64,000 nt of DNA from Minisyncoccota bacterium (GTDB taxonomy: Bacteria; Patescibacteriota; Minisyncoccia; Phycocordibacterales; JAQTLZ01), in NCBI GenBank assembly GCA_028711065.1, contig JAQTSY010000002.1, positions 73,779-137,778 of the forward strand. Reading direction: 5' to 3'. The notes below the pieces were generated by a model. It was not told where the DNA came from and searched no databases. It saw nothing but the letters and a program-made list of their open reading frames with translations. Each line of letters begins with the position of its first letter. Positions within the stretch are counted from its first letter, which is position 1. The translations under genes and the position numbers were made by a program. Shown here one piece after another: positions 2,544 to 30,394 of the stretch.

Positions 2544-2945
2544 ATGGCTGTGAAAGAAACAACTGAAAAGAAGGCCCCTGCAAAGAGAGCGTCTGCGAAG
2601 AAAGCAGTCAAAGTATCTCCCGCTCCAAAAGATGGCGCAATCTCAAAATTGCGCATTCGAGTTCGAGCATACGAATATAAAATTCTTGATCTTTCGGTAA
2701 AGCAGATCATCGACACCGCTCTTCGCTACGATGCGAAAGTTGTCGGCCCTGTTCCGCTTCCAACAGAAATAAATAAATACACAGTCAATCGCTCTGCTTT
2801 CGTCTACAAAAATGCGCGAGAACAGTTCGAAATGCGAGTGCACAAGAGACTTATTGATATCTTGAATCCGTCAGGGAAAATCATCGAGGCTTTGACCAAC
2901 ATGAATCTCCCAAGTGGTGTAGATATCGACGTCAAAATCCTCTAA
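2544..2945 (+). CDS. rpsJ: 30S ribosomal protein S10 with a K/A-rich N-terminal extension
   Basis: The core RIRVRAYEYKILD...NLPSGVDIDVKIL matches S10. It is the first gene of an S10-operon order. Confidence 0.93.
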   Translation: MAVKETTEKKAPAKRASAKKAVKVSPAPKDGAISKLRIRVRAYEYKILDLSVKQIIDTALRYDAKVVGPVPLPTEINKYTVNRSAFVYKNAREQFEMRVHKRLIDILNPSGKIIEALTNMNLPSGVDIDVKIL

Positions 2946-3039
2946 ACAAAAAGAGGGAAGTAGAATAGCTTAAAATGGCTTTAAGCTTTACTTTTTGGTC
3001 TGTTTCTGTTAAGTTGAGTGAGATTTTTTTGCAAAAAAC

Positions 3040-3642
3040 ATGAAATTCGTCCTAGGACAAAAGGTAAATATGACGCAAGTCTTCGATGAAAACGGGGCTC
3101 TTCACCCTGGCACGATTATTTCCTGTGGTGCAAACGTCGTTACTCAAGTAAAGACAGACGAAAAAGATGGCTACAAAGCTGTGCAAATCGGCTACGGAAC
3201 TCGAAATCCAAAGAACGTAAATAAGGCTCAAAAAGGCCACACAAAAGAGCTTGGAAATTTCTCTAATTTCCGAGAATTTACAGGCGTTTCAGATCTTAAA
3301 GTCGGCGACACACTTAGCCCAGCACTTTTCAAAGTGGGGGAGAAGGTTGTTATCACTTCCGTTTCAAAAGGAAAAGGATTCCAGGGTGTTATCAAGCGAC
3401 ACGGTTTCGGCGGAGGACGACGAACACACGGACAGAAACACTCTGAACGAGAACCAGGTTCTATTGGAGGAGGACTTCGAACACGCGTTCCAAAAGGAAT
3501 GAGAATGGGAGGCAGAATGGGACAAGACACGATTACCTCAAAAGGTATGACTGTGCTTATGGTTGACGAAGCAAAACGAGAAATTATTATCGGCGGAGCG
3601 GTTCCAGGACGAAGAGGAACACTTGTCGAAATCAAAGGCTAA
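3040..3642 (+). CDS. rplC: 50S ribosomal protein L3
   Basis: The 200-aa product matches L3 and sits in operon position. Confidence 0.93.
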   Translation: MKFVLGQKVNMTQVFDENGALHPGTIISCGANVVTQVKTDEKDGYKAVQIGYGTRNPKNVNKAQKGHTKELGNFSNFREFTGVSDLKVGDTLSPALFKVGEKVVITSVSKGKGFQGVIKRHGFGGGRRTHGQKHSEREPGSIGGGLRTRVPKGMRMGGRMGQDTITSKGMTVLMVDEAKREIIIGGAVPGRRGTLVEIKG

Positions 3643-3643
3643 T

Positions 3644-4315
3644 ATGGAAGCAACAGTCTACAACCAAAGAGGTATGGAAACAGGGAAAGTAAAACTTCCC
3701 GAGGCAGTATTCGGCGTTCACTGGAATTCTGACTTGGTTCACCAAGTGACAACTTCGATGAAGACCAATGCTCGAAAGCCTGTTGCTCACACAAAGACTC
3801 GAGGAGAAGTGCGAGGAGGAGGCAAGAAGCCTTGGAGACAGAAAGGTACTGGCCGAGCTCGTCACGGTTCTACTCGTTCTCCAATCTGGGTTGGCGGAGG
3901 TGTTGCTCACGGTCCTCGAAATGATCAGAATTTCACTCGAAAAATCAATCGTTCAATGAAGGCGAAAGCTCTCTACACGATCCTTTCCCGAAAATTGAAA
4001 GACAAAGAAATCATCTTTGTTGATACTTTGAATATGGACAGCGGAAAAACAAAAGATGCAAAGGAGATCGTTATGAATCTCGGCAAGATCGCAGGCTTTG
4101 AAAAGCTTTCAACAAAACGAAAGAATGCCGCTTATATCACTCTTGGACATAAGGATGTTGCGGTAGAGCGAGGTTTCGGAAACTTTGGAAATGTCACTGT
4201 GGATGAACTTCGAAATATGAATCCAATGGACTTGATGCAGAATGCATATCTCATCATCACAGAACCAGAAAAGTCGTTCGAGTTTTTGGCTTCTAAGCTA
4301 CCAGCTAAAAGCTAA
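3644..4315 (+). CDS. rplD: 50S ribosomal protein L4
   Basis: The listed ORF 3563..4315 overlaps rplC. An ATG at 3644 lies immediately after the rplC stop and gives a typical ~224-aa L4 (MEATVYNQRG...). Confidence 0.88.
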   Translation: MEATVYNQRGMETGKVKLPEAVFGVHWNSDLVHQVTTSMKTNARKPVAHTKTRGEVRGGGKKPWRQKGTGRARHGSTRSPIWVGGGVAHGPRNDQNFTRKINRSMKAKALYTILSRKLKDKEIIFVDTLNMDSGKTKDAKEIVMNLGKIAGFEKLSTKRKNAAYITLGHKDVAVERGFGNFGNVTVDELRNMNPMDLMQNAYLIITEPEKSFEFLASKLPAKS

Positions 4316-4330
4316 CAGCTACAACCTACC
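4296..4330 (+). repeat. 5 x 7-nt tandem heptamer repeat AGCTAnn (copy 1 of 3), overlapping the rplD stop codon
   Basis: AGCTACC AGCTAAA AGCTAAC AGCTACA ACCTACC. Related copies are at 6326-6360 and 16335-16369. Confidence 0.7.
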
Positions 4331-4333
4331 CAA

Positions 4334-4705
4334 ATGGCTATTTTCGCTAAAAAAGAAGAGACAAAGAAGAAAGCAAAGGCTGTGAAAACAGAAGTTGCTG
4401 TTGTAAAAGCGCCTTCGACGAAGCCTCATGCTGACCTTTCTCATATCGTTCTCCATCCTCGAGTGACTGAAAAATCATCTCAAGAAGCAGAAAAGAATAT
4501 CTATGTGTTTTCCATTGCTCACTCTGCAACAAAGGCCACTGTCGCATCTTCGATAAAAGAAATGTACAAGGTTACACCTACGAAAGTAAACATTGTTTTC
4601 ACCCCTGCAAAAAAGGTGTTTGTCCGAGGGAAAGTGGGAATGAAAACACGAGTGAAGAAAGCGTATGTTTTCCTCAAAAAAGGCGACAAAATTGAATTTG
4701 TATAA
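4334..4705 (+). CDS. rplW: 50S ribosomal protein L23 (N-terminal K-rich extension)
   Basis: L23 core with operon position. Confidence 0.9.
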   Translation: MAIFAKKEETKKKAKAVKTEVAVVKAPSTKPHADLSHIVLHPRVTEKSSQEAEKNIYVFSIAHSATKATVASSIKEMYKVTPTKVNIVFTPAKKVFVRGKVGMKTRVKKAYVFLKKGDKIEFV

Positions 4706-4710
4706 AAATT

Positions 4711-5562
4711 ATGAAGACCTATAAACCAACAACAGCATCACGACGTGGAATGACCGGTATCAACTACCGAGAGTTCCTTACCGCGTCAGAGCCTTTGAAA
4801 TCGCTTACCTCGGGTTTTAAACGAGATGTTGGACGAAACAGCTTTGGCCGTTTGACTGTGCGCCACAAAGGAGGCGGACACAAGCGACTTTTCCGAGATG
4901 TTGATTTCCGATACAACAAAAAAGATGTTCCCGCGAAAGTGTTGACCATTGAATACGATCCAAACCGAACTGGTTTCATCGCTCTCGTGCAATATCAGGA
5001 TGGAGAGAAGCGCTATGTCCTCGCTCCAAAGAGTATGAAAGTTGGCGATTCATTTGTCGTCTCTGAAAAAGCTCCTGTAAAAATGGGGAATCGAATGCCT
5101 CTCAAGAAAATTCCAGTTGGTACTTTTGTATACAATGTTGAGCTCAAACCTGGAAACGGAGGCAAGCTTGGCCGTTCAGCAGGGAACTACATCGAAGTAG
5201 TAGCACAGGATGCCAACTATACTCATCTCAAAATGCCTTCGACAGAAATCCGAAGAGTGCACGAAGAGTGCTACGCATGCGTTGGTGAAGTTTCAAATGA
5301 TGAAAATCGTCTTGTGAATATCGGAAAAGCAGGACGTTCTCGATGGCTTGGTATCCGACCGACAGTGCGAGGTACGGCAATGAACCCAGTAGACCACCCA
5401 CACGGAGGAGGTGAAGGACGACAGGGACGAGGAAGCCGACGACAAAAGACTTCGTACGGAAAGCCGACAGGAAAAGGACAGAAATCCCGCCGAGCAAAAA
5501 AATATTCAAACATTTTCATCGTCTCTCGACGAAAGGTGGGGAAGGGGAAGAATAAGAAGTAA
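4711..5562 (+). CDS. rplB: 50S ribosomal protein L2
   Basis: 283 aa with the L2 signature GRNxxGxITxRHKGGGHKR and a C-terminal basic tail. Confidence 0.96.
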   Translation: MKTYKPTTASRRGMTGINYREFLTASEPLKSLTSGFKRDVGRNSFGRLTVRHKGGGHKRLFRDVDFRYNKKDVPAKVLTIEYDPNRTGFIALVQYQDGEKRYVLAPKSMKVGDSFVVSEKAPVKMGNRMPLKKIPVGTFVYNVELKPGNGGKLGRSAGNYIEVVAQDANYTHLKMPSTEIRRVHEECYACVGEVSNDENRLVNIGKAGRSRWLGIRPTVRGTAMNPVDHPHGGGEGRQGRGSRRQKTSYGKPTGKGQKSRRAKKYSNIFIVSRRKVGKGKNKK

Positions 5563-5813
5563 AAACCACTCGAAACAGTTTTTGAGAAACCCAGAAAACT
5601 GCCCCAGCGGGCAGTTTTCCTTGTGCTGGGCGCCGGCTGCTTTGTGGTATAGTTTTTGCCCGAAGCAAAAATTACACCACAAAGACCATGCCAGCCTGGC
5701 GTGCGCGGGTTTCTAAAAACTATTCCTCGCTTTCGTAGGAATTCTGATTAGTTGACAGAAGTATTTTCATATTATATAAGTATTAATAGTACCTGTGTGT
5801 CAAATCGTGCGAT

Positions 5814-6272
5814 TTGGCTTTAAAGTTTCGTTTCGGGAATTTCTGGGAGGACTTAGTCATGCCAATCGGTGCTTTGTTTTTGAGTTTCTGTGCGCTTGTG
5901 ATGCTTGTCATTGCTCCGTTTGGTTTCTATGCAGGATTTAAGAGACCAAAAGAGTGTACATTGCCACGTACCACTCTCGCATTGTCCCTCATTTGTCTGC
6001 CGTCGCTTTTGTGTGTTGGCTTCTATCTTGGAAGTTGGTATTATCCATCGCCACTAAGACCTGACCGAATCGAGTTTGGTTTAATCTATAAAATAGATGC
6101 GAGAGTGCCCGATGGTGACGGTACTCTCTATATTTTGTCTCAATCATCGGATCAGATGAAATTGTTGGTCCGTGATTCAGGCTCATTACCAGCAGGTTTG
6201 GCAGAGTGTTCCGTTGTTCGAGACTGGGAACATCAAGAGACCCATCTTAGTCTCGTCCCTTCGCCTCGATAA
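5814..6272 (+). CDS. hypothetical small membrane protein inserted between rplB and rpsS (alternative start at 5859)
   Basis: ORF with two predicted TM segments. It is followed by a strong terminator and a promoter. It is unusual for this conserved operon. Confidence 0.45.
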   Translation: MALKFRFGNFWEDLVMPIGALFLSFCALVMLVIAPFGFYAGFKRPKECTLPRTTLALSLICLPSLLCVGFYLGSWYYPSPLRPDRIEFGLIYKIDARVPDGDGTLYILSQSSDQMKLLVRDSGSLPAGLAECSVVRDWEHQETHLSLVPSPR

Positions 6273-6282
6273 GCAAAGCTAT

Positions 6283-6318
6283 ACCGCCCAGTGCTTGCGC
6301 ACTGGGCGGGTTTTTCTT
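6283..6318 (+). terminator. rho-independent terminator (CCGCCCAGTG...CACTGGGCGG + T-tract)
   Basis: Perfect 10-bp stem followed by TTTTTCTTTT. Confidence 0.7.
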
Positions 6319-6325
6319 TTGTTTA

Positions 6326-6360
6326 AGCTATAATCTAACAGCTACAAGCTACAAGCTGTC
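6326..6360 (+). repeat. 5 x 7-nt heptamer repeat AGCTAnn (copy 2), between a terminator and the rpsS promoter
   Basis: AGCTATA ATCTAAC AGCTACA AGCTACA AGCTGTC. Confidence 0.7.
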
Positions 6361-6365
6361 TCGCG

Positions 6366-6394
6366 TTGACACTTATAGGCCATTTTGCTAGTAT
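6366..6394 (+). promoter_or_regulatory. sigma70-like promoter TTGACA-N17-TAGTAT driving rpsS and the downstream r-protein genes
   Basis: Consensus -35, a 17-nt spacer and a -10 hexamer. A near-identical promoter and leader sits at 10631-10659. Confidence 0.6.
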
Positions 6395-6463
6395 CTTGCC
6401 AAGTTCTCTTGAGGGCTTTTTATTTTTCTGCTCACGGAAAAGCTCAAGTTTGCTTATTAAATC

Positions 6464-6805
6464 ATGACACGATCGCTCAAAAAAGGCCCTTATATTGACC
6501 CGAAACTCTTGAAAAAGATTGAAGGCAAAACTCCCCAGACAACTGGGCTTATTAAGACTTGGTCACGACGCTCACAGATCGCTCCCGAGATGGTAGGTTT
6601 CAAATTTGGCGTTCACAACGGCCGAGAGCATCTTGAAGTCTTGGTCTCTGAAGAAATGGTGGGACATCGACTCGGAGAGTTTTCACATACACGCAAATTC
6701 ATCCGACACGGAGGTAAGATGCAGAAAGAACTTGAAATGAAGAAGAAAGAGGCAGAAGTCGCTGCTGCTCAAGCTGCAAAGGGCTCTGCTGATACCAAGA
6801 AATAA
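6464..6805 (+). CDS. rpsS: 30S ribosomal protein S19 (C-terminal K/E/A-rich extension)
   Basis: [12 protein letters not shown]...HNGREH matches S19. Confidence 0.94.
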
Positions 6806-6810
6806 TTTCC

Positions 6811-7197
6811 ATGAAAGCTTACCTATCAGATTACAGACAATCACCTCGAAAAGTTCGCCTTGTTGCGGATCTTATTAAAGGCAAGAGTGTTGTTGAGGCA
6901 CAGAGCCAGCTTTCATTTCTCCCAAAGAAGGCGAGTGAAGTGTTCGCAAAGCTTCTCGCATCTGCAGTTGCAAATGCAAAAAATACAAACGGATTCAAAG
7001 CTGAAGACCTTTTGGTAAAAGAAGTTCGAGTAGATACTGCACGAGTCTTGAAGCGTTCAATGCCTCGAGCTCGCGGTTCTGCTTTTCAGATTTTGAAACG
7101 AAATAGTCACGTATCCATCGCCCTTGCTGAAAGAGGAGCGGATATTGCAAAGGTAACAGCAAAAATCAAAAAAGAAAAAACGGCAGTTAAGAAATAA
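6811..7197 (+). CDS. rplV: 50S ribosomal protein L22
   Basis: Matches L22 and sits in operon order. Confidence 0.92.
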   Translation: MKAYLSDYRQSPRKVRLVADLIKGKSVVEAQSQLSFLPKKASEVFAKLLASAVANAKNTNGFKAEDLLVKEVRVDTARVLKRSMPRARGSAFQILKRNSHVSIALAERGADIAKVTAKIKKEKTAVKK

Positions 7198-7206
7198 TTT
7201 TCTATC

Positions 7207-7881
7207 ATGACCCACATTGTCCACCCATATTCACATAGACTTGGCATCATCAGAGACTGGAAGAGTCGATGGTTTAGCGATGGCAAAGGATACCGCGCTT
7301 CGCTCAAAGTGGATGTACTTTTGCGAGAATACTTGGCGGTCAAATTCCGAGGAATGTTCGTGAGCGGTGTTGATATCGAACGAAATCAAAAGACGATGCG
7401 AGTGATTATCAAGACTTCACGCCCTGGAGTACTCATTGGACGAAATGGCGAGGGGCAGGTAAAACTTCGAAATGATATTTTGAAACAATTCGCTCGATGG
7501 GGAGTGAAGACAAAGGAGGAATTGAAAATTGATGTTGTGGAGATCCGTTCTCCAGAATCAAATGCTGCTATTGTTGCGCAAATGGTTGCCGACTCTCTTG
7601 AAAAAAGAATGCCTTTCCGACGTGTTGCAAAACAGATCGTTGAGAAAGTTATGGCAAATCGAGATGTGCTCGGAGTAAAAGTGGGCCTTTCAGGACGACT
7701 TGGAGGAGCTGATATGGCACGACGAGAAAAGATAAAGAAAGGACGAATTCCGCTTCAGACATTCCGCGCTGATATTGATTTTGCACGAGAGAAAGCTCAC
7801 ATGAGTTACGGAGATATTGGAATCAAAGTTTGGATATACAAAGGAGAAGTTTTTTCCGATAAAAAGCCAGCTGCTAAATAA
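7207..7881 (+). CDS. rpsC: 30S ribosomal protein S3
   Basis: 224 aa with KH-domain S3 homology. Confidence 0.95.
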   Translation: MTHIVHPYSHRLGIIRDWKSRWFSDGKGYRASLKVDVLLREYLAVKFRGMFVSGVDIERNQKTMRVIIKTSRPGVLIGRNGEGQVKLRNDILKQFARWGVKTKEELKIDVVEIRSPESNAAIVAQMVADSLEKRMPFRRVAKQIVEKVMANRDVLGVKVGLSGRLGGADMARREKIKKGRIPLQTFRADIDFAREKAHMSYGDIGIKVWIYKGEVFSDKKPAAK

Positions 7882-7890
7882 TTTACTACC

Positions 7891-8307
7891 ATGCTTCTCC
7901 CTAAAAAAGTAAAACATCGAAAGTGGCAGACTATGCGCCGAAATATGAAGAAGGATCGCGTGGAGACACGAGGTACTACGATTGCTTTCGGTTCATACGG
8001 CATCAAATCTTTGAGCGCGATGCGAGTGCGTTCAAACCAGCTTGAAGCTGCTCGAAAGGTGATGTCACGACTTGTCGGTAAGACTGGAAAGATCTGGATT
8101 CGCGTTTTCCCTGATATGCCCTATACTGCCAAAGCTGCAGAAGTAGGTATGGGAGGCGGAAAAGGAGATCCACAGGGATACTGCGTACAGGTATATCCAG
8201 GACGAATCATTTTTGAAATTGACGGAGTTGACGATGCGACAGCGCGAGAGGCGCTCCGAAAGGCAGGTACAAAGCTTCCTTTGAAGACCGTAATCCTCAA
8301 ACGATAA
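7891..8307 (+). CDS. rplP: 50S ribosomal protein L16
   Basis: 138 aa matching L16. Confidence 0.95.
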   Translation: MLLPKKVKHRKWQTMRRNMKKDRVETRGTTIAFGSYGIKSLSAMRVRSNQLEAARKVMSRLVGKTGKIWIRVFPDMPYTAKAAEVGMGGGKGDPQGYCVQVYPGRIIFEIDGVDDATAREALRKAGTKLPLKTVILKR

Positions 8308-8312
8308 TTTTT

Positions 8313-8495
8313 ATGGCTGAAATCAAAGATACAAACGAAAAAGAATTGAACCGAATGCTCACTGAAAAACGAGCAGGTCTTCAGAAATTCCGATTTGGAG
8401 TTTCAGGAAGCAAGACAAAGAATGTTCGAGAGGGAAGAGTTTTGCGAAAAGATATCGCTCGAATTTTGACTCAACTCAACACAAAGACTAAATAA
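8313..8495 (+). CDS. rpmC: 50S ribosomal protein L29
   Basis: 60 aa matching L29. Confidence 0.88.
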   Translation: MAEIKDTNEKELNRMLTEKRAGLQKFRFGVSGSKTKNVREGRVLRKDIARILTQLNTKTK

Positions 8496-8500
8496 TTATC

Positions 8501-8773
8501 ATGGCCGAACAAGTAACCAAAACAGAAAAGAAAGCAGAAGGCCTGACCGGCCAGGGGAAACTCTTTACCGGCAAAGTGGCATCCAACAAGATGGCGAAGA
8601 CTGTCGTCGTCGAAGTGATGCGATATGTAAAGCACCCAAAGTATCAGAAATTCTTGAAAAAGATCAAACGATACAAGGCGCATGCAGAAGGAACTTACGA
8701 AGTTGGCCAGACAGTTACCATCCAGGAATGCCGACCAATGTCCAAAGACAAGTCATTCATCGTCATAAAATAA
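8501..8773 (+). CDS. rpsQ: 30S ribosomal protein S17
   Basis: 90 aa matching S17. Confidence 0.9.
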   Translation: MAEQVTKTEKKAEGLTGQGKLFTGKVASNKMAKTVVVEVMRYVKHPKYQKFLKKIKRYKAHAEGTYEVGQTVTIQECRPMSKDKSFIVIK

Positions 8774-8777
8774 TTGT

Positions 8778-9149
8778 ATGATTCAACCACGATCCATCGT
8801 CAAAATAACGGATAACTGCGGAGGAAAAATCGGCCGTATTTTCAAAGTGCTTGGTTCAAGCAAGAAGCGATACGCCCGCATCGGAGACATCGTGGTGCTT
8901 TCTGTGCAGACTGCAGAGCCTCGAAAGGGAGTGAAGAAGAAAGATGTGCTTCAGGCGGTAGTTGTGCGACAAGTACAGCCATTCCGACGAAAAGACGGTT
9001 CTTACATTCGATTTGATGAGAACGCAGTGGTCATAATCGAAAAGGGAAAGCAGGAGCCTATCGCAGGACGCGTCTTCGGCCCAATCCCTCGAGAAATTTC
9101 TGAAATGGGTTTTCAGACTATTGCATCACTCGCACCGGAAATCGTGTAA
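8778..9149 (+). CDS. rplN: 50S ribosomal protein L14
   Basis: 123 aa matching L14. Confidence 0.95.
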   Translation: MIQPRSIVKITDNCGGKIGRIFKVLGSSKKRYARIGDIVVLSVQTAEPRKGVKKKDVLQAVVVRQVQPFRRKDGSYIRFDENAVVIIEKGKQEPIAGRVFGPIPREISEMGFQTIASLAPEIV

Positions 9150-9160
9150 ATTTTAATACC

Positions 9161-9466
9161 ATGAATATCAAAAAAGGAGACAACGTAATAGTGATGACAG
9201 GAAAGGATAAAGGCAAGACCGGTACGGTTGTTCGCGCTTTTCCTAAACTTTCTACTTTGATCGTTGAAGGAATCAACAAGCACAAGAAACATCAGCGACC
9301 TCGAAAAGAAGGCGAGAAAGGACAGACTGTTGAAAAAAGTTTTCCAATGCATGCTTCAAACGTCATGATTGTTGACAAGAAGAGCGGAAAGGGAACACGA
9401 GTTGGTTCAAAAATGGTTGGTGAGAAAAAAGTACGAATCGCTCGAAAAAGCGGACAGGAAATTTAA
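9161..9466 (+). CDS. rplX: 50S ribosomal protein L24
   Basis: KOW-domain L24. Confidence 0.9.
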   Translation: MNIKKGDNVIVMTGKDKGKTGTVVRAFPKLSTLIVEGINKHKKHQRPRKEGEKGQTVEKSFPMHASNVMIVDKKSGKGTRVGSKMVGEKKVRIARKSGQEI

Positions 9467-9475
9467 ATCAAACAC

Positions 9476-10024
9476 ATGGATTCAGTAAAAGAAAAACAGA
9501 ATAAAGCTTTTGAGCATCTCAAAACAAAGATGCATTATAAGAACGCAATGCAAGCGCCAAAGATGGTGAAGGTTGTGGTGAGCGCTGGCGTTGGTTCAAT
9601 GAAAGACAAGAAGAAAATTGAGCTTGTTGCAAACCGACTGGCGAAAATCACCGGCCAGAAGCCGGCAGTTCGAGGCGCAAAGAAATCAATCGCATCTTTC
9701 AAAGTTAGACAGAATGATCCAGTTGGGTATCAGGTAACTATCCGAGGAACACGAATGTATGGATTTCTCGATAAGCTTTTGAATGTCGCCCTCCCTCGAA
9801 CTCGAGACTTCCGAGGACTTTCTAGGAAAGCAGTGGATGCGATGGGGAACTACACAATCGGAATCAAGGAGCACACCATTTTCCCAGAAACTCCGGATGA
9901 AGAAATCAAAGATGTGTTCGGTCTTGCAGTAACGCTCGTAACAAATGCAAAGAATCCAAAAGAAGCCGAAGCTTTTCTCGAATATATCGGATTGCCGTTG
10001 AAGAAAGAGGAAGTGAAGAAATAA
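9476..10024 (+). CDS. rplE: 50S ribosomal protein L5
   Basis: 182 aa matching L5. Confidence 0.94.
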   Translation: MDSVKEKQNKAFEHLKTKMHYKNAMQAPKMVKVVVSAGVGSMKDKKKIELVANRLAKITGQKPAVRGAKKSIASFKVRQNDPVGYQVTIRGTRMYGFLDKLLNVALPRTRDFRGLSRKAVDAMGNYTIGIKEHTIFPETPDEEIKDVFGLAVTLVTNAKNPKEAEAFLEYIGLPLKKEEVKK

Positions 10025-10026
10025 AC

Positions 10027-10056
10027 AAAAAAACCGCTTTCGCGGTTTTTTTGTTT
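10027..10056 (+). terminator. rho-independent terminator (AAAAAACCGCTTTCGCGGTTTTTTTG)
   Basis: GC stem with a T-tract directly after the rplE stop. Confidence 0.7.
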
Positions 10057-10111
10057 ATTTCTGTGGGAATCTTTTCTGGACATATAATACGTAAAGACAT
10101 AGCATATACCT

Positions 10112-10600
10112 ATGCTGAAAAAGATTTACATTTTTTGTATTGTAATTGGTATCATCTTGAACTTTATCCCTGGTGCGAGATTGTTTGGAGTTATACTAAT
10201 CGCTCTCGGGGTTATTCTTGGTTTGTTCTCCCTACCCAAAGCAGGAACTTCGTTCGCGCAGTCTACACCATCTTTACTTAACGTATGGTCTAGATACTAC
10301 GTTCCCTATGTAGGAATTCTTGTTCTCCTATTGGTACTTTACTTCTTTCTGGGGTCCTCATTGCCATTCTTGAGATTAGTCGTTGTGCTATATGCTGTTG
10401 TGGGTGGTCTTGGTTATAGATACTTAGCGCTTAGAACATCTGTCGGTCAAGCCAAAGATCGAATAAATGATTATCGATCTTCAGGCACATCCAGTGATGC
10501 CAAAGTTTACTACGCTCTTATTGCCATTAGTTTTATAGCAGTTATTATTTCCTCTTTTGTGGTCCCTTTGGTTTCGGTACTAATAAATAATCCTCACTAG
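10112..10600 (+). CDS. hypothetical integral membrane protein (about 4 TM) inserted between rplE and rpsZ
   Basis: Hydrophobic 162-aa ORF bounded by a terminator upstream and a promoter downstream. Confidence 0.5.
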   Translation: MLKKIYIFCIVIGIILNFIPGARLFGVILIALGVILGLFSLPKAGTSFAQSTPSLLNVWSRYYVPYVGILVLLLVLYFFLGSSLPFLRLVVVLYAVVGGLGYRYLALRTSVGQAKDRINDYRSSGTSSDAKVYYALIAISFIAVIISSFVVPLVSVLINNPH

Positions 10601-10630
10601 GGCTTTGAATTCAGGCTATTTTCTCTTTGT

Positions 10631-10659
10631 TTGACAGGGCTAACGCCCTTTGCTAGTAT
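10631..10659 (+). promoter_or_regulatory. sigma70-like promoter TTGACA-N17-TAGTAT, a paralogue of the 6366 promoter with a similar leader
   Basis: Identical hexamers and spacing. The downstream leader (TAGTATgttcgcaagctcttttggg) resembles the 6395-6420 leader (TAGTATcttgccaagttctcttgaggg). A ~250-nt structured leader precedes rpsZ. Confidence 0.6.
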
Positions 10660-10906
10660 GTTCGCAAGCTCTTTTGGGTGAGAAATGAGGTAAAACCCTC
10701 ATTTCGCAAGACCTTTTCAGGATTTTTTAAGTGTATTCACGAGGAAAAAGCCGAAAAGGTGTACAGTCCCTGTAAGGGATTTTTGTTTGCAGGGTGGGGC
10801 CTTTCTTACATACGCCAATCTACTGTATGTAAAAGTGGTACTGCCTATAATGCAAACATTAGACCAAAAAAGACGATTAACGTAAGTAATATAAGGGTAT
10901 TTTATT

Positions 10907-11092
10907 ATGGCAAAAACATCAGTTGTTGCGCGTTCAAAAAAGAAGCCAAAATTTGCATCTCGAGTTGTTCGACGATGTTTTCGATGCGGACGAAAGAACG
11001 GCTATATGCGCGATTTCGATATGTGCCGAATTTGTTTCCGAGAATTCGCGAATGAGGGAATGATCCCAGGTATCAAGAAGTCCAGTTGGTAA
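10907..11092 (+). CDS. rpsZ: 30S ribosomal protein S14, zinc-binding type Z (61 aa)
   Basis: CxxC...CxxC spacing (RCFRCGR...CRICFRE) in a short S14. Confidence 0.92.
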   Translation: MAKTSVVARSKKKPKFASRVVRRCFRCGRKNGYMRDFDMCRICFREFANEGMIPGIKKSSW

Positions 11093-11107
11093 TTTTCTAA
11101 AATCATC

Positions 11108-11500
11108 ATGTCAACCGATTTAATTTCAGATCTCATAATTCAACTCAAAAACGCAGGAGACGCCGGCAAGGAAACTCTTTCTGTTTCTCATTCTGATTTG
11201 AAAGCTTCAATTTTGGAACTTCTCGCAAAGAGCGGTTACATCGCTTCTTTCACCAAGCGAGGAAAGAAAGTAAATAAATTTTTGGATGTTGTTCTTGCAA
11301 AGAAGGAAGGGATGCCACGAATCAGCGGAGTAAAAAGACTTTCTCATGTTTCTTCGCGACAATACAAAGGCGTAGCTGATATTCGACGAGTGAAGCAGGG
11401 ACACGGAATGATGGTGCTCACGACTCCAAAAGGAATTCTTTCTGATGTTGAAGCACGAAAGGAGAAAGTTGGAGGTGAAGCACTTTTCGAAATATGGTAA
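11108..11500 (+). CDS. rpsH: 30S ribosomal protein S8
   Basis: 130 aa matching S8. Confidence 0.93.
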   Translation: MSTDLISDLIIQLKNAGDAGKETLSVSHSDLKASILELLAKSGYIASFTKRGKKVNKFLDVVLAKKEGMPRISGVKRLSHVSSRQYKGVADIRRVKQGHGMMVLTTPKGILSDVEARKEKVGGEALFEIW

Positions 11501-11545
11501 AAAATTCGTAAAATCGGAGCACTTCTTCGTTGGTTCGGGTCGAAG

Positions 11546-11610
11546 GCTTCCTCGCAGTAGGTCATCTACAGCTCGGTCGCACTTCTCCCTCCCGCCTCGA
11601 ATTGCTCACA
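11546..11610 (+). repeat. conserved ~65-nt intergenic motif (copy 1) between rpsH and rplF: GCTTCCtCGCAGTAGGTcaTCTACAGCtcGGTCGC...GCCTCGAAtTGCTCA
   Basis: About 75% identity with 15133-15199, including a 30-nt near-identical core with a small GTAG/CTAC hairpin. Confidence 0.6.
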
Positions 11611-11632
11611 ATTTAACAAATTTTAAAAAAAT

Positions 11633-12163
11633 ATGTCACGTATAGGTAAAAAAGTAATATCAGTTCCAGAAAAGACCGAAGTGAAGATCGGTACTGGTGT
11701 TATGTCCGTCAAAGGCCCTCTTGGAGAACTTTCACGTCCTTTCAAACACAGTGATGTAAAGATTGCTTTGGCTGATGGCAAAATCACTTTGACTCCAGTC
11801 GGCGAAGATTCAGGAGCTCTTTGGGGTACTTACTCTGCGCACCTCACCAACATGATCAAAGGTGTTCATACACCTTTCCAGAAGAAGCTCATCATCGAAG
11901 GAGTGGGATACAAGTGGGATGTGAAGGGAGAGGAACTCAATTTGGCTCTCGGATTTTCTCATCCAGTGAAACTCAAAATTCCAAAAGGATTGAAAGTGGT
12001 TGCTGAAAAAGGAAATCTCACTATTTCTGGCAATGATGTCGAAATGGTAGGACACTTTACTGCGAAAGTGCGAGATTTGAAAAAGCCTGAACCATACAAA
12101 GGAAAAGGAATCCGATACAGCGATGAAGTTATCCGACGCAAGGCTGGTAAGAAGACAACATAA
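11633..12163 (+). CDS. rplF: 50S ribosomal protein L6
   Basis: 176 aa matching L6. Confidence 0.94.
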   Translation: MSRIGKKVISVPEKTEVKIGTGVMSVKGPLGELSRPFKHSDVKIALADGKITLTPVGEDSGALWGTYSAHLTNMIKGVHTPFQKKLIIEGVGYKWDVKGEELNLALGFSHPVKLKIPKGLKVVAEKGNLTISGNDVEMVGHFTAKVRDLKKPEPYKGKGIRYSDEVIRRKAGKKTT

Positions 12164-12168
12164 TTTCC

Positions 12169-12525
12169 ATGAAATCTGCTAACACAAAATCAGAAAAGAG
12201 AATTCGACGACACAAGAAGATCCGCAGCTCCGTCTCCGGAAGCGCAGAGAAGCCTCGTCTTTCGGTTTTCAAATCAAACAAGCATCTCTATGCACAGCTT
12301 ATTGATGATGACTCACAGAAAACGCTCGCTGTCTTTTCGTCTCTCAATTTGAAAGATTCAAAGAAGAAAATTTCTGAACAGGCAATTGAAATTGGAAAAG
12401 AATTGGCAAAGATCGCAAAAGCAAAGGGAGTGACGAAAGTCGTTTTTGACCGAGGAGGTTTCGTTTATCAAGGCAAAATTAAAGCTCTTGCAGACGGAGC
12501 TCGTGAAGGGGGATTGATATTTTAA
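12169..12525 (+). CDS. rplR: 50S ribosomal protein L18
   Basis: 118 aa matching L18. Confidence 0.92.
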   Translation: MKSANTKSEKRIRRHKKIRSSVSGSAEKPRLSVFKSNKHLYAQLIDDDSQKTLAVFSSLNLKDSKKKISEQAIEIGKELAKIAKAKGVTKVVFDRGGFVYQGKIKALADGAREGGLIF

Positions 12526-12533
12526 TTAAACAT

Positions 12534-13208
12534 ATGTCAGACGAAAATACACAACCAAATACAGCTCCAGTAGCACCTACAGCTCCACAAGCTCCTGTAG
12601 CAGGTGCTCCAATGAGCGGCGCTCCAATGCCACGAGGCGGTGCACGACCTCAAGGCGGTCAGAGAACTTTTGAAAAGAATCCTCGACGAAATACCCGAAA
12701 GCCGGGAGGACGAGATGGCGGACGCACAAAGCCAGAATTTGATCAGAAAATCATTTCTATTCGACGTGTGACTCGAGTTGCTTCCGGAGGACGACGATTC
12801 AGCTTCTCTGTGGCGCTTGTTGCAGGAAACCGAAAAGGCTCTGTGGGAGTAGGAATTGGAAAAGGAGCAGATACATCGCTTGCAATCGACAAAGCTGTCC
12901 GAAATGCAAAGAAGCATATGATCAAGCTCGCGCTCACAAAGACTATGTCTATTCCGCACGAAGTTGATGCAAAGTTCAATGCTTCACGAGTTGTTTTGAA
13001 GCCAGCACGAGGACGAGGAGTTTCAGCAGGAAGCTCTGTACGAAACGTTATCGAGCTTGCAGGTATCACCGACATCAGCGCGAAAATTCTTTCCCGAAGT
13101 AAGAATCATTTGAATAATGCGCAGGTTGCGATCATGGCATTGTCAGAGTTTAGAGATAAGACAAAGAAAGTTCTTGCTGCACCGACACTTCAGAAAGAAC
13201 AGCGATAA
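12534..13208 (+). CDS. rpsE: 30S ribosomal protein S5 with a ~60-aa P/A/G-rich N-terminal extension
   Basis: S5 core (IRRVTRVASGGRRFSFSVALVAGN...). Confidence 0.93.
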   Translation: MSDENTQPNTAPVAPTAPQAPVAGAPMSGAPMPRGGARPQGGQRTFEKNPRRNTRKPGGRDGGRTKPEFDQKIISIRRVTRVASGGRRFSFSVALVAGNRKGSVGVGIGKGADTSLAIDKAVRNAKKHMIKLALTKTMSIPHEVDAKFNASRVVLKPARGRGVSAGSSVRNVIELAGITDISAKILSRSKNHLNNAQVAIMALSEFRDKTKKVLAAPTLQKEQR

Positions 13209-13222
13209 TTTCAAAAAATAGC

Positions 13223-13807
13223 ATGCAAACCCATAATCTAAAAAGAGTTCATGAGCTTATCACGCACTATCAAGTAGGGCGAGGGGGGAAGCGCGGAAAA
13301 ACATCTGGCCGAGGAGGCAAGGGACAGACTGCTCGAGCGGGAAACAAGAGACGACCAGAGCTTCGAGACCTCATCAAAAAGCTTCCAAAGATGCGAGGAA
13401 GAGGGAAGAACAGCAACAAAACGATCGATTTCCGAAAAGTATACCCAATCAACCTCGATCTTATCGAAGTAGGCTACAATGCTGGAGAAGTAGTTTCTCC
13501 AAAGACGCTTCTTGAAAAAGGTGTAGTTCCTCTTGTAAAAGGAAATCTTCCTCTCGTAAAAATTCTTTCTATGGGGGAAATCACAAAGCGTGTTACAGTA
13601 GAAGGATGCGAGATTTCAGCCGGAGCGAAGGCAAAAATTGAAAAGGCTGGAGGGACAGCACCCGCACTTCTCGTTCAGCTTCCAAAGCGTGCTCCTATTA
13701 AAGTAGTTGTAAAAGAAGCTCCAAAAGCGAAGGCTCCCGCAAAGGCAAAACCAGCTCCCGCAAAAGAAAAGGCTCCAGCGAAGGAAAAAGTTGCCGTTAA
13801 AAAATAA
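13223..13807 (+). CDS. rplO: 50S ribosomal protein L15 with a C-terminal KAPAKAK repeat tail; it directly follows rpsE with no rpmD (L30) between
   Basis: L15 core. Only 14 nt separate rpsE from rplO. Confidence 0.92.
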   Translation: MQTHNLKRVHELITHYQVGRGGKRGKTSGRGGKGQTARAGNKRRPELRDLIKKLPKMRGRGKNSNKTIDFRKVYPINLDLIEVGYNAGEVVSPKTLLEKGVVPLVKGNLPLVKILSMGEITKRVTVEGCEISAGAKAKIEKAGGTAPALLVQLPKRAPIKVVVKEAPKAKAPAKAKPAPAKEKAPAKEKVAVKK

Positions 13808-13819
13808 GTTTTTCACACA

Positions 13820-15091
13820 ATGGATAATTTCTTCTCCAAATTAAAGCTCATTATCGCGGATAAGAGCATTAGAAATCGAGTACTCTTTACACTCGGTGCT
13901 TTGATTATCTTTCGACTGCTCGCAAACATCCCAATTCCTGGAATTGACGTCGCGCGACTGCAAGCTTTCTTCGCAAACAGCCAGTTTTTGGGACTTTTGA
14001 ATGTATTTTCTGGAGGTGGGCTTTCAAACCTTTCTCTCATTATGCTCGGAGTCGGTCCGTACATCACTGCATCTATCATCATGCAGCTTTTGACCATGAT
14101 GGTGCCGAAGCTCAAGGCGATGTATCAGGAAGAGGGTGAAGCAGGACGCGCAAAATTTGCACAGTACTCCCGTCTTGTCGGCGTACCGCTCGCATTTCTC
14201 CAGGCGTTCGGCTTTCTCCTCCTTCTTCAGAAGCAGGGAATTGTGCCGTCTCTCGGAGGTTTTGCTCTGGCCGTAAATGTTATCGTCATTGCCGGAGGCT
14301 CTGTCCTTCTCATGTGGATCGGAGAACTTATCACTGAATTTGGAATTGGAAACGGAGTTTCGCTCATCATCTTTGCCGGAATCGTGGCAAGAATCCCAAC
14401 AGCAATGAGCCAAGCGCTTGTTTCTTTCGATGCTTCACAAATTCCTGTCTATATCGGTTTCTTGGCTGCCGCCGTAGCGATTATCTTTGGTGTCGTCATC
14501 ATTACTGAAGGCGAACGGCCAATTCCAGTCACGTATGCAAAGCGAGTCCGTGGAATGAAAGTGTATGGAGGAACTTCGACATATCTTCCTCTTCGATTGA
14601 ATCAAGCTGGAGTTATTCCAATTATTTTCGCACTTTCAATTTTGCTCTTCCCACAGATGATTTTCAATTTCCTTTCTTCGACAGGGAACGCGACGATAAG
14701 CGCTATTGGTACATTCGTCCTTGCTGTTATCGCAAACAAGTGGATTTATGCGCTTGCGTATTTCATCCTCGTATTTCTCTTTACTTATTTCTACACAGCA
14801 GTTACTTTCGATCCAGATTCTATTTCAGAAAATCTCCAGAAGAACGGCGCGTTCATTCCAGGAGTTCGCCCAGGACAATCCACTTCAGCGCATATTTATA
14901 AAATCTTGAATCGTCTCACGCTTTTCGGCGCACTTTTCCTCGGTATTATTGCTGTGCTTCCGCTCGCAATGCAGGCCCTCACAGGAATTCAATCTCTTGC
15001 TATTGGAGGTACTGCGCTTCTCATTGTTGTTTCTGTAGTTCTCGACTTGATGAAAAAAGTAGACGCTCAAATCAGTATGCGCGAATATTAA
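13820..15091 (+). CDS. secY: preprotein translocase subunit SecY
   Basis: 423 aa, 10 TM, SecY homology. Confidence 0.96.
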   Translation: MDNFFSKLKLIIADKSIRNRVLFTLGALIIFRLLANIPIPGIDVARLQAFFANSQFLGLLNVFSGGGLSNLSLIMLGVGPYITASIIMQLLTMMVPKLKAMYQEEGEAGRAKFAQYSRLVGVPLAFLQAFGFLLLLQKQGIVPSLGGFALAVNVIVIAGGSVLLMWIGELITEFGIGNGVSLIIFAGIVARIPTAMSQALVSFDASQIPVYIGFLAAAVAIIFGVVIITEGERPIPVTYAKRVRGMKVYGGTSTYLPLRLNQAGVIPIIFALSILLFPQMIFNFLSSTGNATISAIGTFVLAVIANKWIYALAYFILVFLFTYFYTAVTFDPDSISENLQKNGAFIPGVRPGQSTSAHIYKILNRLTLFGALFLGIIAVLPLAMQALTGIQSLAIGGTALLIVVSVVLDLMKKVDAQISMREY

Positions 15092-15741
15092 AAGCTCGAA
15101 TCTGGCGAATTTCATCGTTACCAAAAAATTTCGCTTCCGTGCAGTAGGTTCACTACAGCGTGGTCGCGAAATTTTTTGTTGCCTCGAACTTCGCTCATAT
15201 TCGGGCTTTTAGTGGCCACTTCATTCTTGTGGGTTTTTTTAAATTTATTTAAATCGACGCGAACCGGGAACCCCCGTTACGTTTTTTTGTTGCCTCTTTC
15301 GTCGTTAGTGGTAGGATGAAATCTGGCCGCAAAGAAAGGAGGTGCATCACGATTACGAGAATCGCCTGAAAATCCGGCTTTCAGCGAGCTCCCAGTGGGT
15401 CTCTCCAGGCGAAAATCTGAGGGATTCAAAAGCCTTGTCAAATGGGGGCAACGTTCTCCGGTAAAGAAAAATTAGTGTCGCGCGCGGAGGTCACCAAACC
15501 GGTTGGCATAGAAGCGCGTGTAAGTGGAAGCGGGAATTGCTGTTGTCTCCCCCGGGAACGTCTAAAGGCATCTCCCTGGATTTTGTTTTCCAGGAAAACG
15601 ACAGGTGGAGAATTTTCTCCAAGGGCACGCCAGGTGCCCCAGAAGAACGAACCTATGGTTTCGACTTGGCGAGTGAGGGCGGTGGTGAGAAATCCACCGC
15701 TCTTTTTAATTAGGCTGTTTTTTGCTACTATAAGCCGTATT
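15092..15741. other. about 650-nt noncoding GC-enriched region between secY and adk; candidate structured RNA(s); no credible ORF
   Basis: Six-frame ORFs here are low-complexity N-terminal extensions or antisense. A perfect 13-bp stem (CAAAAAATTTCGC/GCGAAATTTTTTG) lies at 15121-15178. A second copy of the conserved motif shared with 11546-11610 is present. Confidence 0.5.
15133..15199 (+). repeat. conserved ~65-nt intergenic motif (copy 2) downstream of secY, embedded in the loop of a 13-bp perfect stem
   Basis: See copy 1. Confidence 0.6.
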
Positions 15742-16329
15742 ATGGCACCCAAGACATTCATTATGATTGGCCGATCTGGCTGTGGAAAGGGCACTCAAGC
15801 TGACCTTCTTTTGGCGCACCTCAAAGAAAAAACTGGTCTCAATGGCTATCATCTCGAGACTGGCAAGAAATTCCGCGAATTCATTCAGTCAAAAGGCTAC
15901 ACTAGCGGGCTTTCTCGACAGATCATTGAGGAAGGGGGGCTTCAGCCTGAATTTCTTGCTATTTGGAATTGGGCGAGTTCTCTTATCGAAAATCTGACTC
16001 CTGATGTGCACCTTGTTCTCGATGGTGCTCCACGAAAGCTGTTTGAAGCGGAAGTTTTGAATCTTGCGCTTGAATTTTATAAACGAGAAAATCCTGCAGT
16101 TATATTTTTGAATGTCAGCGAAAATTGGGCACGCGAGCGACTCATGGAGAGAGCGCGAGGAGATGATAAGAAAGATAGCATTAACAAAAGGCTTGCATGG
16201 TATGAAACTGAAGTGCTTCCTGTTGTCGAGTTTTTCAAAAAGAAAAAGAATTACCATTTTCTTGAAATAAATGGCGAACAGCCGATCGAAAAAGTGCAGG
16301 CAGATATTCTCAAAGGTCTCCGTATTTGA
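15742..16329 (+). CDS. adk: adenylate kinase (Zn-lid-less short form)
   Basis: GRSGCGKGTQA P-loop. The start was reassigned from the listed 15442 to the ATG at 15742. Confidence 0.9.
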   Translation: MAPKTFIMIGRSGCGKGTQADLLLAHLKEKTGLNGYHLETGKKFREFIQSKGYTSGLSRQIIEEGGLQPEFLAIWNWASSLIENLTPDVHLVLDGAPRKLFEAEVLNLALEFYKRENPAVIFLNVSENWARERLMERARGDDKKDSINKRLAWYETEVLPVVEFFKKKKNYHFLEINGEQPIEKVQADILKGLRI

Positions 16330-16334
16330 TTTTA

Positions 16335-16369
16335 AGCTAATAGCTACCAGCTAAAAGCTACAAGCTACC
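16335..16369 (+). repeat. 5 x 7-nt heptamer repeat AGCTAnn (copy 3), between adk and map
   Basis: AGCTAAT AGCTACC AGCTAAA AGCTACA AGCTACC. Confidence 0.7.
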
Positions 16370-28638: not shown

Positions 28639-29652
28639 TTGATGCTGAAAAAACTTGATAATGCATACGACAATATCATATCTTTGGAAAATTTACTTTT
28701 AGCATGGCAGGAGTTTTTGAGCGGGAAGAAGAAGCGAGAAGATGTGCAAGAATTCGAGCGAAATTTGATGCAAAATCTTATTTCACTTCATTCCGATCTT
28801 TCCGCGAAAACATATCGTCACGGAGCATACCATTATTTCGTCGTCTCTGATCCGAAACGGCGCGATATTCATAAAGCGACTGTCCGCGACAGGATAGTGC
28901 ATCGAGCAGTCTATCGAATTTTGTATCCGTATTTTGATCGGAAATTTATTCCTGATTCGTATTCTTGCCGGAATTTCAAAGGAACGCATCGAGCACTCGA
29001 TCGCTTTCGGGATTTCGGGAGAAAAGTTTCCCGAAATCACACTTGCACCTGTTGGGTCTTGAAGTGCGATATCCGCAAGTTTTTCGCTTCGATTGATCAC
29101 AAAACGCTTTTTACAATTTTGGGAAAGCACATTTCGGATGCAGATACGCTTTGGCTTTTGCGAGGAATTGTCGGCAGTTTTCATTCAAAAAGAGAAGGTG
29201 TCGGATTGCCACTTGGAAATTTAACTTCGCAACTTCTGGTGAACATTTACATGAACGAATTTGATCAATTCGTAAAGCATCGACTGAAAGTAAAATATTA
29301 CATTCGCTACGCTGATGATTTTGTTTTTCTCCACGAGGACAAAGCTGTGCTTGAAGAGCTTTTGCCGAAGATTGGAGATTTTTTGGAAGAGAAATTAGAA
29401 CTTTCTTTGCATCCCGACAAAGTGTTTATTAAAACATTTTCCTCTGGTGTGGATTTTCTCGGATGGATGCACTTTCCGAATCATCGAGTATTGAGAGCAG
29501 CGACGAAGCGAAGAATGATGAGGACTATAGAAGCGAAAAAAGGAAAAACAGAGACCCTTCAGTCTTATCTTGGGCTTTTATCTCACGGGAATACAAAAAA
29601 ACTGCAGAGAAAAATACGAACCATCAACTTGGAAGCTTGGCTTCCAAGTTGA
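28639..29652 (+). CDS. DGR reverse transcriptase
   Basis: RT motifs with the DGR-diagnostic LPLGNLTSQLLVNIYM in motif 4 (group II introns have QGxxxSP). YADDFVF in motif 5. No maturase or endonuclease domain. Confidence 0.85.
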   Translation: MMLKKLDNAYDNIISLENLLLAWQEFLSGKKKREDVQEFERNLMQNLISLHSDLSAKTYRHGAYHYFVVSDPKRRDIHKATVRDRIVHRAVYRILYPYFDRKFIPDSYSCRNFKGTHRALDRFRDFGRKVSRNHTCTCWVLKCDIRKFFASIDHKTLFTILGKHISDADTLWLLRGIVGSFHSKREGVGLPLGNLTSQLLVNIYMNEFDQFVKHRLKVKYYIRYADDFVFLHEDKAVLEELLPKIGDFLEEKLELSLHPDKVFIKTFSSGVDFLGWMHFPNHRVLRAATKRRMMRTIEAKKGKTETLQSYLGLLSHGNTKKLQRKIRTINLEAWLPS

Positions 29653-30278: not shown

Positions 30279-30388
30279 GGTCGCGAAATGTAGTATTTTA
30301 AAAACGCGACATAAAACTTTGCTAAGTTTTTGCTATGCTCGGCCCAGCCGGCCTGCGCAATGTTTTTAAAATACTACATTTCGCGACC
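30279..30388. repeat. 110-bp palindromic element between cls and infC: perfect 27-bp arms (GGTCGCGAAATGTAGTATTTTAAAAAC) around a GC-rich inner hairpin
   Basis: Arms at 30279-30305 and 30362-30388 are exact reverse complements. Confidence 0.75.
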
Positions 30389-30394
30389 TGCGTT

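Follow-up and report, generated by a model that had tools for sequence, protein, structure and literature searches.

The sequence analysed here is a window of 64,000 nucleotides from a Minisyncoccota bacterium (contig JAQTSY010000002.1, forward-strand positions 73,779 to 137,778; G+C content of the 64-kb window 43.9%). Its tuf-S10-spc array of translation genes, from which the gene for L30 was absent, is broken by two gaps, one between rplB and rpsS (5563-6463) and one between rplE and rpsZ (10025-10906). Each gap contained a single long open reading frame (ORF), hereafter ORF1 and ORF2. The array appears to be a chain of separately terminated and re-initiated transcription units, whose junctions probably became insertion hot spots in the clade. 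For comparison, 80 loci were fetched with an S3 query and all cluster genes were mapped by tblastn. The core comparison comprised the window and 23 relatives (coded L001 onward; S3 53-73% identical). The nearest genomes were Parcubacteria/Paceibacteria metagenome-assembled genomes labelled Zambryskii-, Taylor-, Nomura-, Yonath- and Paceibacteria, and a metagenome scan with L22 retrieved distant relatives only (40-52% identical). The features of the array are listed below; promoters, terminators and unit limits are predictions, and z is the z-score of the predicted fold.

about 1144-1177, + strand: terminator upstream of the tuf promoter
1186-1213, + strand: promoter of the tuf unit, TTGACT-16-TG-TATGAT; a weak hairpin with T-run comes next, at 1214-1245
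1332-2522, + strand: tuf
2544-5562, + strand: S10-L3-L4-L23-L2 genes, downstream of tuf
4711-5562, + strand: rplB (L2), final gene of the putative tuf-S10-L3-L4-L23-L2 unit (tblastn mapping)
5577-5720, + strand: three-way hairpin cluster, 144 nt, -84.4 kcal/mol, z = -8.1
5752-5780, + strand: weak promoter-like site for ORF1, TTGACA-17-TATAAG, read directly from the sequence and unscored in the promoter scan
5859-6272 (open from 5814), + strand: ORF1, 137 aa from the ATG at 5859; ORFan with 2 predicted transmembrane (TM) helices
6284-6319 (hairpin 6284-6309), + strand: intrinsic terminator after ORF1, 11-bp stem with 9 G-C pairs, then a T-run; z = -5.2
6325-6357, + strand: tandem heptad array (AAGCTAC) x 4.7, between the ORF1 terminator and the rpsS -35
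6366-6394, + strand: rpsS-unit promoter, -35 TTGACA (6366-6371), 17-nt spacer, TG (6386-6387), TAGTAT (6389-6394)
6401-6428, + strand: canonical leader module of rpsS, hairpin AAGTTCT-CTTG-AGGGCTT (6401-6418) 6 nt past the -10, then TTTATTTTT
6464-6805, + strand: rpsS (S19), opening the putative S19...L5 unit
6464-10024, + strand: S19...L5 genes
10017-10062, + strand: bidirectional-type terminator, a 21-bp perfect palindrome overlapping the rplE stop codon; z = -9.0
10077-10105, + strand: weak promoter-like site before ORF2, TGGACA-17-TAGCAT
10112-10600, + strand: ORF2, a 162-aa ORFan with about 5 hydrophobic (TM) segments by hydropathy
10631-10659, + strand: rpsZ-unit promoter, TTGACA-N17 with TTTGC-TAGTAT; orthologous to the rpsZ promoters of L002, L017, L006 and L005
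10660-10906, + strand: rpsZ leader, 247 nt, unusually long and structured (z = -4.8), with a degenerate copy of the hairpin module
10907-11092, + strand: rpsZ (61-aa S14, CxxC...CxxC), opening the putative S14-S8-L6...secY unit
10907-15091, + strand: S14-S8-L6-L18-S5-L15-secY, then adk and map

Spacers longer than 400 nt occurred at only five places in the window and its relatives, namely S10/L3, L2/S19, L5/S14, secY/adk and adk/map. Spacer lengths ranged from 80 to 2,753 nt at L2/S19 and from 51 to 5,575 nt at L5/S14. L2 did not lie within about 9 kb of S19 in L015 and L018, nor S14 within about 8 kb past L5 in L010 and L019. More distant genomes of the candidate phyla radiation (CPR; the seven genomes L024-L030 and others) had 5-131 nt at both junctions and no consensus promoter there. 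Gap contents were unlike in every genome. Cargo recognised by Pfam included a reverse transcriptase (RVT_1), MazF/PemK and ParE toxins, an IS200-type transposase (Y1_Tnp), DUF559, an extracytoplasmic function (ECF) sigma factor, an N_methyl pilin-like protein, a PIF1 helicase, ORF6N and an ATP-grasp enzyme, and ORFans were also encountered. From these sequences, junctions L2/S19 and L5/S14 are read as behaving like insertion hot spots.

The pattern TTGACA-N17-TAGTAT was present at exactly two sites of the window, 6366-6394 and 10631-10659, where 0.04 was expected, and none of 100 shuffles contained two or more copies. Both copies can also be written TTGACA-N14-TTTGCTAGTAT and each lies downstream of an ORFan ORF. 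They are of the sigma-70 extended -10 type (TTGACA as -35, a spacer of 17 +/- 1 bp, TG one base before the -10, and TAnnnT), which they match at 10 of 12 positions plus the TG. In nearly all relatives, promoters of the form TTGAC(A/T)-N16/17-TAnnnT preceded S19 and S14, and they were found before tuf also. About 23 Paceibacteria relatives had the clade promoter ahead of these genes. A core set of 45 TTGAC[AT]-N16-18-TAnnnT sites, all within the 320 nt that precede tuf, S19 or S14, was aligned at the -10 and gave the consensus CTCCTTTTGC-TAGTAT; TAGTAT itself was present in 19 of them and most displayed TG at -14/-13. The 8 nt after the -10 were enriched in G/C in these core promoters (55% vs 36% for other promoters). 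The promoter was also found at junctions devoid of any inserted gene, at L5/S14 in L002 (115-nt spacer), L004 (144 nt), L007 (93 nt), L012 (52 nt), L017 (163 nt) and L023 (109 nt), and at L2/S19 in L010 (81 nt). The most parsimonious account of these sequences is that terminator-promoter pairs belong to the operon architecture of the clade and that genes were inserted between them, rather than promoter cassettes having arrived with the inserts.

A stable G/C-rich hairpin with an adjoining U-run, as expected of an intrinsic terminator, was present at 5594-5619, 6284-6309 and 10017-10062, and strong terminators immediately after L2 and L5 were general in relatives too. The cluster behind rplB comprises perfect 11-bp arms (5594-5604/5609-5619), 20-nt arms with 90% pairing (5640-5659/5665-5684) and a closing stem (5580-5592/5707-5719). 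Of the hairpins in this cluster, the first, 5594-5619 (GAAAACTGCCC-cagc-GGGCAGTTTTC), resembles a terminator and is taken to mark the end of the tuf...L2 unit. The structure at 5577-5720 matched no Rfam family and was not repeated elsewhere in the window or in 96 loci. The three-way junction may exceed the role of a terminator, and hairpins as extreme were seen after L2 and L5 in L001, L009, L017, L022 and L023. A scan of the window at Rfam gathering thresholds returned a transfer-messenger RNA (tmRNA) and 3 tRNAs only, and no ribosomal protein (r-protein) leader family (S10/L4, spc/S8, L10, L13, L19, L20, L21, S15 and others were considered). Likewise, an E-value scan of 5400-11200 gave chance-level matches only.

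Much of an earlier, preliminary description of this DNA was borne out by these data. It had placed unrelated small membrane-protein ORFs in both gaps and a hairpin cluster or terminator before each, with nested hairpins after rplB that include a 20-bp imperfect stem, and all of these were recovered. It had also held that the array is broken at rplB/rpsS and rplE/rpsZ by terminator-promoter pairs of one design, which our results supported and extended to the site before tuf. The comparison with relatives that it had called for displayed the same two split junctions, with conserved promoters and differing cargo.

The part of the transcript that would follow these promoters also displayed a common organization. 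To count as a leader module, a hairpin had to begin 3-13 nt past the -10, to have a stem of 4 bp or more that included two or more G-C pairs and a loop of 3-8 nt, and to be followed by at least 5 T in the next 8 nt. The module was present in 30 of the 45 core promoters (S19 18/20, S14 9/17, tuf 3/8), compared with 2.7 +/- 1.6 and a maximum of 8 in dinucleotide shuffles (n = 500), and all 15 promoters belonging to inserted or other genes lacked it. Most often (13/30) the hairpin began exactly 7 nt past the -10, a position that corresponds to +1/+2 of start sites that are themselves predicted. Stems measured 4-9 bp and loops 3-7 nt, the mean stability was -5.9 kcal/mol (range -2 to -11.5) and several pair types occurred at every stem position among the 30 leaders. 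A covariance model built from these leaders matched only tuf, S19 and S14 sites over 397 kb, with a single match in the window (6389-6426, 28.6 bits). The fold of the S19 leader in the window had z = -0.3, and RNAalifold on a MAFFT alignment of the leaders gave no structure, the short variable hairpins being out of register. A search for further copies upstream of other translation genes had been proposed in the preliminary description; the promoter design does recur before tuf, but the module was absent upstream of rpmI-rplT (promoter TGGACA-17-TAGGAT, no hairpin) and of infC.

Two other roles for the leader hairpin were considered and rejected. A boxA/Nus element (GCUCUUUAACAA-like) is partly resembled by GCTCTTTTGGG and GTTCTCTTGAG in the window, but relatives carry unrelated, compensating stem sequences. 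A mere insulator against read-through is unlikely since the module is kept with a separate terminator 60-100 nt upstream, the two coexisting at S19 of the window and at S14 of L002, L004 and L017. The rpsZ leader of the window contains the direct repeat TTCGCAAG(C/A)(T/C)CTTTT at 10661-10675 and 10703-10717, flanking a hairpin at 10679-10708, as well as a terminator-like hairpin with T-run at 10765-10781. The rpsZ leaders of L005 (12150-12226) and L006 (13175-13257) displayed, upstream of S14-S8, a conserved helix GATTGG...CCAATC with an internal loop AAGCAC / CAGCTAA, which may mimic the S8 binding site. As for ribosome binding, the upstream regions of about 30 window genes were A/T-rich and GGAGG was seen solely before ORF1; the source genome is largely without Shine-Dalgarno (SD) sequences.

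We consider it likely that the array of this Paceibacteria/Parcubacteria (CPR) clade is a chain of self-contained units, each terminated and then re-initiated, and that the insulated junctions became insertion hot spots. This reading builds on what was directly observed, namely sequence anatomy, conservation in relatives, variability of the cargo and statistical enrichment. Instead of one or two long operons, the tuf-S10-spc array would consist of units [tuf-S10-L3-L4-L23-L2], [S19...L5] and [S14-S8...secY]. Each would close at a strong intrinsic terminator, and the next would open at a sigma-70-type promoter with the clade consensus TTGAC(A/T), a 16-17 nt spacer and the extended -10 TTTTGn-TAGTAT. 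The transcript would begin with a G/C-rich stretch, then form a short, sequence-variable hairpin at about +1/+2 with an adjoining U-run. Ribosomes would load on an unstructured, U-rich region behind this hairpin, which would itself serve as a stabilising stem-loop at the 5' end. A stabiliser is favoured because the distance to the -10 is tightly fixed at the predicted 5' end and because the genome is nearly SD-free. Accessory, mobile or orphan genes would come and go at both junctions, which would tolerate them because they are already insulated by terminator and promoter; ORF1 and ORF2 would thus sit between the upstream terminator and the resident promoter. We infer from the sequence signals that initiation and termination take place at the predicted sites and that the hairpin functions in this way.

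Several points weigh against this reading. Promoters, start sites and terminators are all consensus matches, and neither expression nor conservation can be shown for ORF1 and ORF2. The closest relative has 73% S3 identity, so that placing the promoters earlier in time than the inserts rests on parsimony. In the window itself, tuf and rpsZ leaders displayed only degenerate versions of the hairpin. Column-wise covariation in the alignment fitted to the covariance model was not significant (50% of cells paired, slid controls equal). Finally, the U-run always adjoins the hairpin whereas the distance to the ATG varies from 31 to 250 nt, which fits a terminator or attenuator better than a ribosome landing pad.

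The last point leads to the main alternative for the leader module, though one that seems rather unlikely, in which hairpin and U-run at +1 to +30 are a promoter-proximal intrinsic terminator acting as attenuator and co-regulating the tuf, S19 and S14 units. A shared signal or factor, such as nucleoside triphosphate (NTP) pools, Nus-type factors or a global RNA-binding protein, would then set read-through. The module does look like a short terminator, with a run of T4-8 right after the stem in 30 of 45 leaders, regardless of the distance to the ATG. Its restriction to three translation-gene units, evident both from the 15 other promoters devoid of it and from the covariance search, is also in keeping with common regulation, and its maintenance despite a strong terminator just upstream indicates that it is not merely an insulator. 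Yet, the stems are weak (some of 4 bp), no conserved alternative, antiterminator pairing was found for the leader module, and a candidate factor was not identified. Moreover, the tight placement at +1/+2 is needed for protection of the 5' end but not for attenuation.

With the array probably divided into insulated units, ORF1 and ORF2 are read as strain-specific occupants of insertion hot spots. Pfam had no match for either, and no homologue was found among 5.8 billion proteins or 1.8 billion representatives. An exhaustive HMMER search with ORF1 gave only short multi-stretch matches to long repetitive proteins, which were judged spurious, and outside the window ORF2 was recorded only on a 917-nt contig, which matches the window at 100% identity. 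For ORF1, the most plausible start codon is the ATG at 5859; GGGAGGA (5845-5851) lies 7 nt before it, an unusual feature for an SD-poor genome. In a low-confidence AlphaFold2 model of ORF1 (predicted local distance difference test, pLDDT, 61.6), 2 helices were accompanied by a small beta domain at the C-terminus; the model was too uncertain for a fold search. No terminal repeats or target-site duplications were found around ORF1 and ORF2, neither gap contained a transposase or integrase, and no second copy of either ORF was present in the window or in 96 loci. A mobile element or cassette (insertion sequence, miniature inverted-repeat transposable element or integron cassette) was rejected as their carrier, flanking repeats, a mobility gene and extra copies all being absent. 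The term foreign, used for both ORFs in the preliminary description, could not be substantiated: both are ORFans, their G+C content was unremarkable and their codon usage only mildly atypical.

An unlikely proposal is that ORF1, ORF2 or both are chance open frames in non-coding spacers left by decayed insertions. Besides the lack of homologues and the low-confidence model of ORF1, their codon log-likelihoods (-4.25 for ORF1, -4.22 for ORF2) fell below those of all 30 reference genes (-3.69 to -3.98). Membrane proteins, however, usually score lower on this measure, and in both ORFs the coding frame outscored the two alternative frames. Each ORF also fills its gap with promoter-like and terminator-like signals on its flanks, both displayed clear TM-helix patterns and ORF1 has its GGGAGGA. 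We infer that ORF1 and ORF2 are expressed.

The preliminary description had further regarded the two promoter-leaders as near-identical clones that arrived with foreign inserts. Identity is indeed complete in blocks TTGACA and TTTGCTAGTAT, and the rpsS and rpsZ leaders agree at 14 of their first 25 bases. Outside these consensus blocks, however, the remaining spacer agreed at only 3 of 12 positions, which is chance level. The bases common to the two copies are the clade consensus, because the consensus of the 45 sites carries them. Moreover, the rpsZ spacer of the window was closer to rpsZ spacers of four other genomes (12 of 17 positions in L002, then 11, 10 and 9) than to the rpsS spacer of the window (8/17), and the whole rpsZ promoter aligned with its orthologue in L002 at 86% over 36 nt. 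With the promoters also present in insert-free genomes, and with neither flanking direct or inverted repeats nor mobility genes found at either ORF, it is very improbable that ORF1 and ORF2 are foreign cassettes that each carried or copied a promoter-leader and that the two leaders are paralogous. A functionless chance resemblance between the two promoter-like sites is hardly credible, for although a generic promoter scan of the window yielded 24 sites vs 22.2 in shuffles, the specific pattern is far in excess of expectation, the cluster has no large gaps other than the two in which the copies lie, and the pattern recurs at both junctions in about 20 other genomes.

Heptad repeats formed a further layer of repetition in these arrays. 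Besides the one before the rpsS promoter, (AAGCTAC)n arrays were present in the window at 4295-4330, before the ATG of L23, and at 16334-16368, before that of map. Relatives L001, L003, L005, L007, L013, L017, L011 and L004 displayed 7-nt arrays of many units directly before start codons; the units of window and relatives include AAGCTAC, CGCTAAC, ACGCTAC, CCCTAnn, ATTCGTA and TTCCTAA. In L011 and L004, nearly every intercistronic spacer of 70-125 nt consisted of a heptad array and a complementary array forming a hairpin (-20 to -42 kcal/mol) a few bases before the ATG, the units varying from spacer to spacer. Intergenic DNA of cyanobacteria contains short tandemly repeated repetitive (STRR) heptanucleotides, to which the present pattern is similar in period only. 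These too are tandem 7-nt units with several unit sequences per genome, whereas the arrays described here abut start codons in r-protein operons and, in L011 and L004, pair into intercistronic hairpins.

Other observations concern the surroundings of the array. The secY/adk gap of the window (15092-15774, 683 nt) lacked a convincing gene and ended with a terminator-like hairpin (15675-15704); the same junction was also enlarged in L001, L015, L022 and L023. A divergent RNase P RNA was suspected at 15300-15710 and rejected, the Rfam scan of the gap having given no match and the fold a z of only -2.3. The ORF listed at 15442-16329 corresponds to adk, extended implausibly at its N-terminus. Directly upstream of the tuf unit lies a surface-protein-like ORF (37-1122) with 246-nt tandem repeats (Tandem Repeats Finder, 280-801); rpsL-rpsG-fusA was not found upstream of tuf, so that the str operon is likewise disconnected in the source genome. 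A reverse transcriptase gene at 28639-29652 was similar to the L5/S14 insert of L003. Two large serine-recombinase-like ORFs (37277-38908 and 46645-48201) abut or overlap the tmRNA (38800-39197) and a tRNA-Ser (46389-46699), which suggests integrated elements. Finally, just upstream of infC (30297-30395, minus strand), two arms of about 25 nt (GGTCGCGAAATGTAGTATTTTAAAA / TTTTAAAATACTACATTTCGCGACC) form a perfect inverted repeat around some 55 nt, which may represent either a leader structure or a small element of palindromic type.

Division of the r-protein array into several transcription units is well established for the S10, spc and alpha operons of E. coli and for the S10-spc-alpha cluster of B. 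subtilis with its internal promoters. As in these bacteria, the long array described here is apparently subdivided into units with their own promoter and leader. Yet, E. coli breaks are located at S17/L14 and after L36, whereas those at L2/S19 and L5/S14 fall within its S10 and spc operons, and the leaders are short and of one design instead of being operon-specific binding sites for L4 or S8. Stabilising stem-loops at the 5' end are known from the 5' untranslated region of E. coli ompA and from the aprE and ermC leaders of B. subtilis. They have a hairpin a few nucleotides from the 5' end, followed by a single-stranded A/U-rich segment with the translation start, an arrangement that is also predicted for the present module. 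The present module differs in that its start sites are predicted, that a U-run directly follows the hairpin and that it is attached to three units across a clade. Intrinsic terminators and attenuators have in common with it a G/C-rich stem, a loop of 3-8 nt and an adjoining U-tract, but the leader stems, with 4-9 bp and a mean of -5.9 kcal/mol, are short and weak; they are located between +1 and +30 and had no detectable competing antiterminator.

A pattern of invasion followed by separation was described between operons of the r-protein cluster in Gammaproteobacteria and Bacilli (Brandis 2021, PMC8046335). The same succession is displayed here, with a few unrelated genes inserted between units first and full disconnection later, as in L015, L018, L010 and L019. 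Events in that study occurred mostly between classical operons, whereas those reported here recur at two intra-operon junctions in CPR genomes, with highly variable cargo that often consists of mobile elements or toxin-antitoxin genes. The division of the r-protein array into operons with their own leaders is thus already known. So is insertion followed by separation in Gammaproteobacteria and Bacilli (PMC8046335). New here are break points that lie inside the classical S10 and spc operons and recur in a CPR clade, where their cargo includes mobile elements and toxin-antitoxin genes, and a shared promoter-hairpin-U-run design on three translation-gene units that matches no Rfam family. The literature library that was searched contained no paper retrieved for CPR promoters or r-protein leaders.

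An improbable extension is that promoter, +1 hairpin and U-run on the tuf, S19 and S14 units form a single global cis-regulatory switch. If true, this switch would be a promoter-proximal attenuator or the site for one trans-acting factor, coordinating synthesis of the translation machinery, and it would replace the operon-specific autogenous leaders of model bacteria in SD-poor, reduced genomes. A second layer of this expression system could be formed by the hairpins of heptad repeats that precede internal start codons.

CPR bacteria (Patescibacteria) are uncultured, and their control of ribosome synthesis, promoters and leaders is almost uncharted. The present locus and its relatives provide a usable strong-promoter consensus for one large CPR clade, as well as a leader module, conserved and open to testing, that three translation-gene units share. 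For annotators, gaps and 'hypothetical proteins' in the S10/spc array of these genomes are recurrent and real, and should not be taken for assembly errors. On the reading favoured here, a near-universal gene cluster would have been re-partitioned at new break points, which later became landing pads for mobile and accessory genes.

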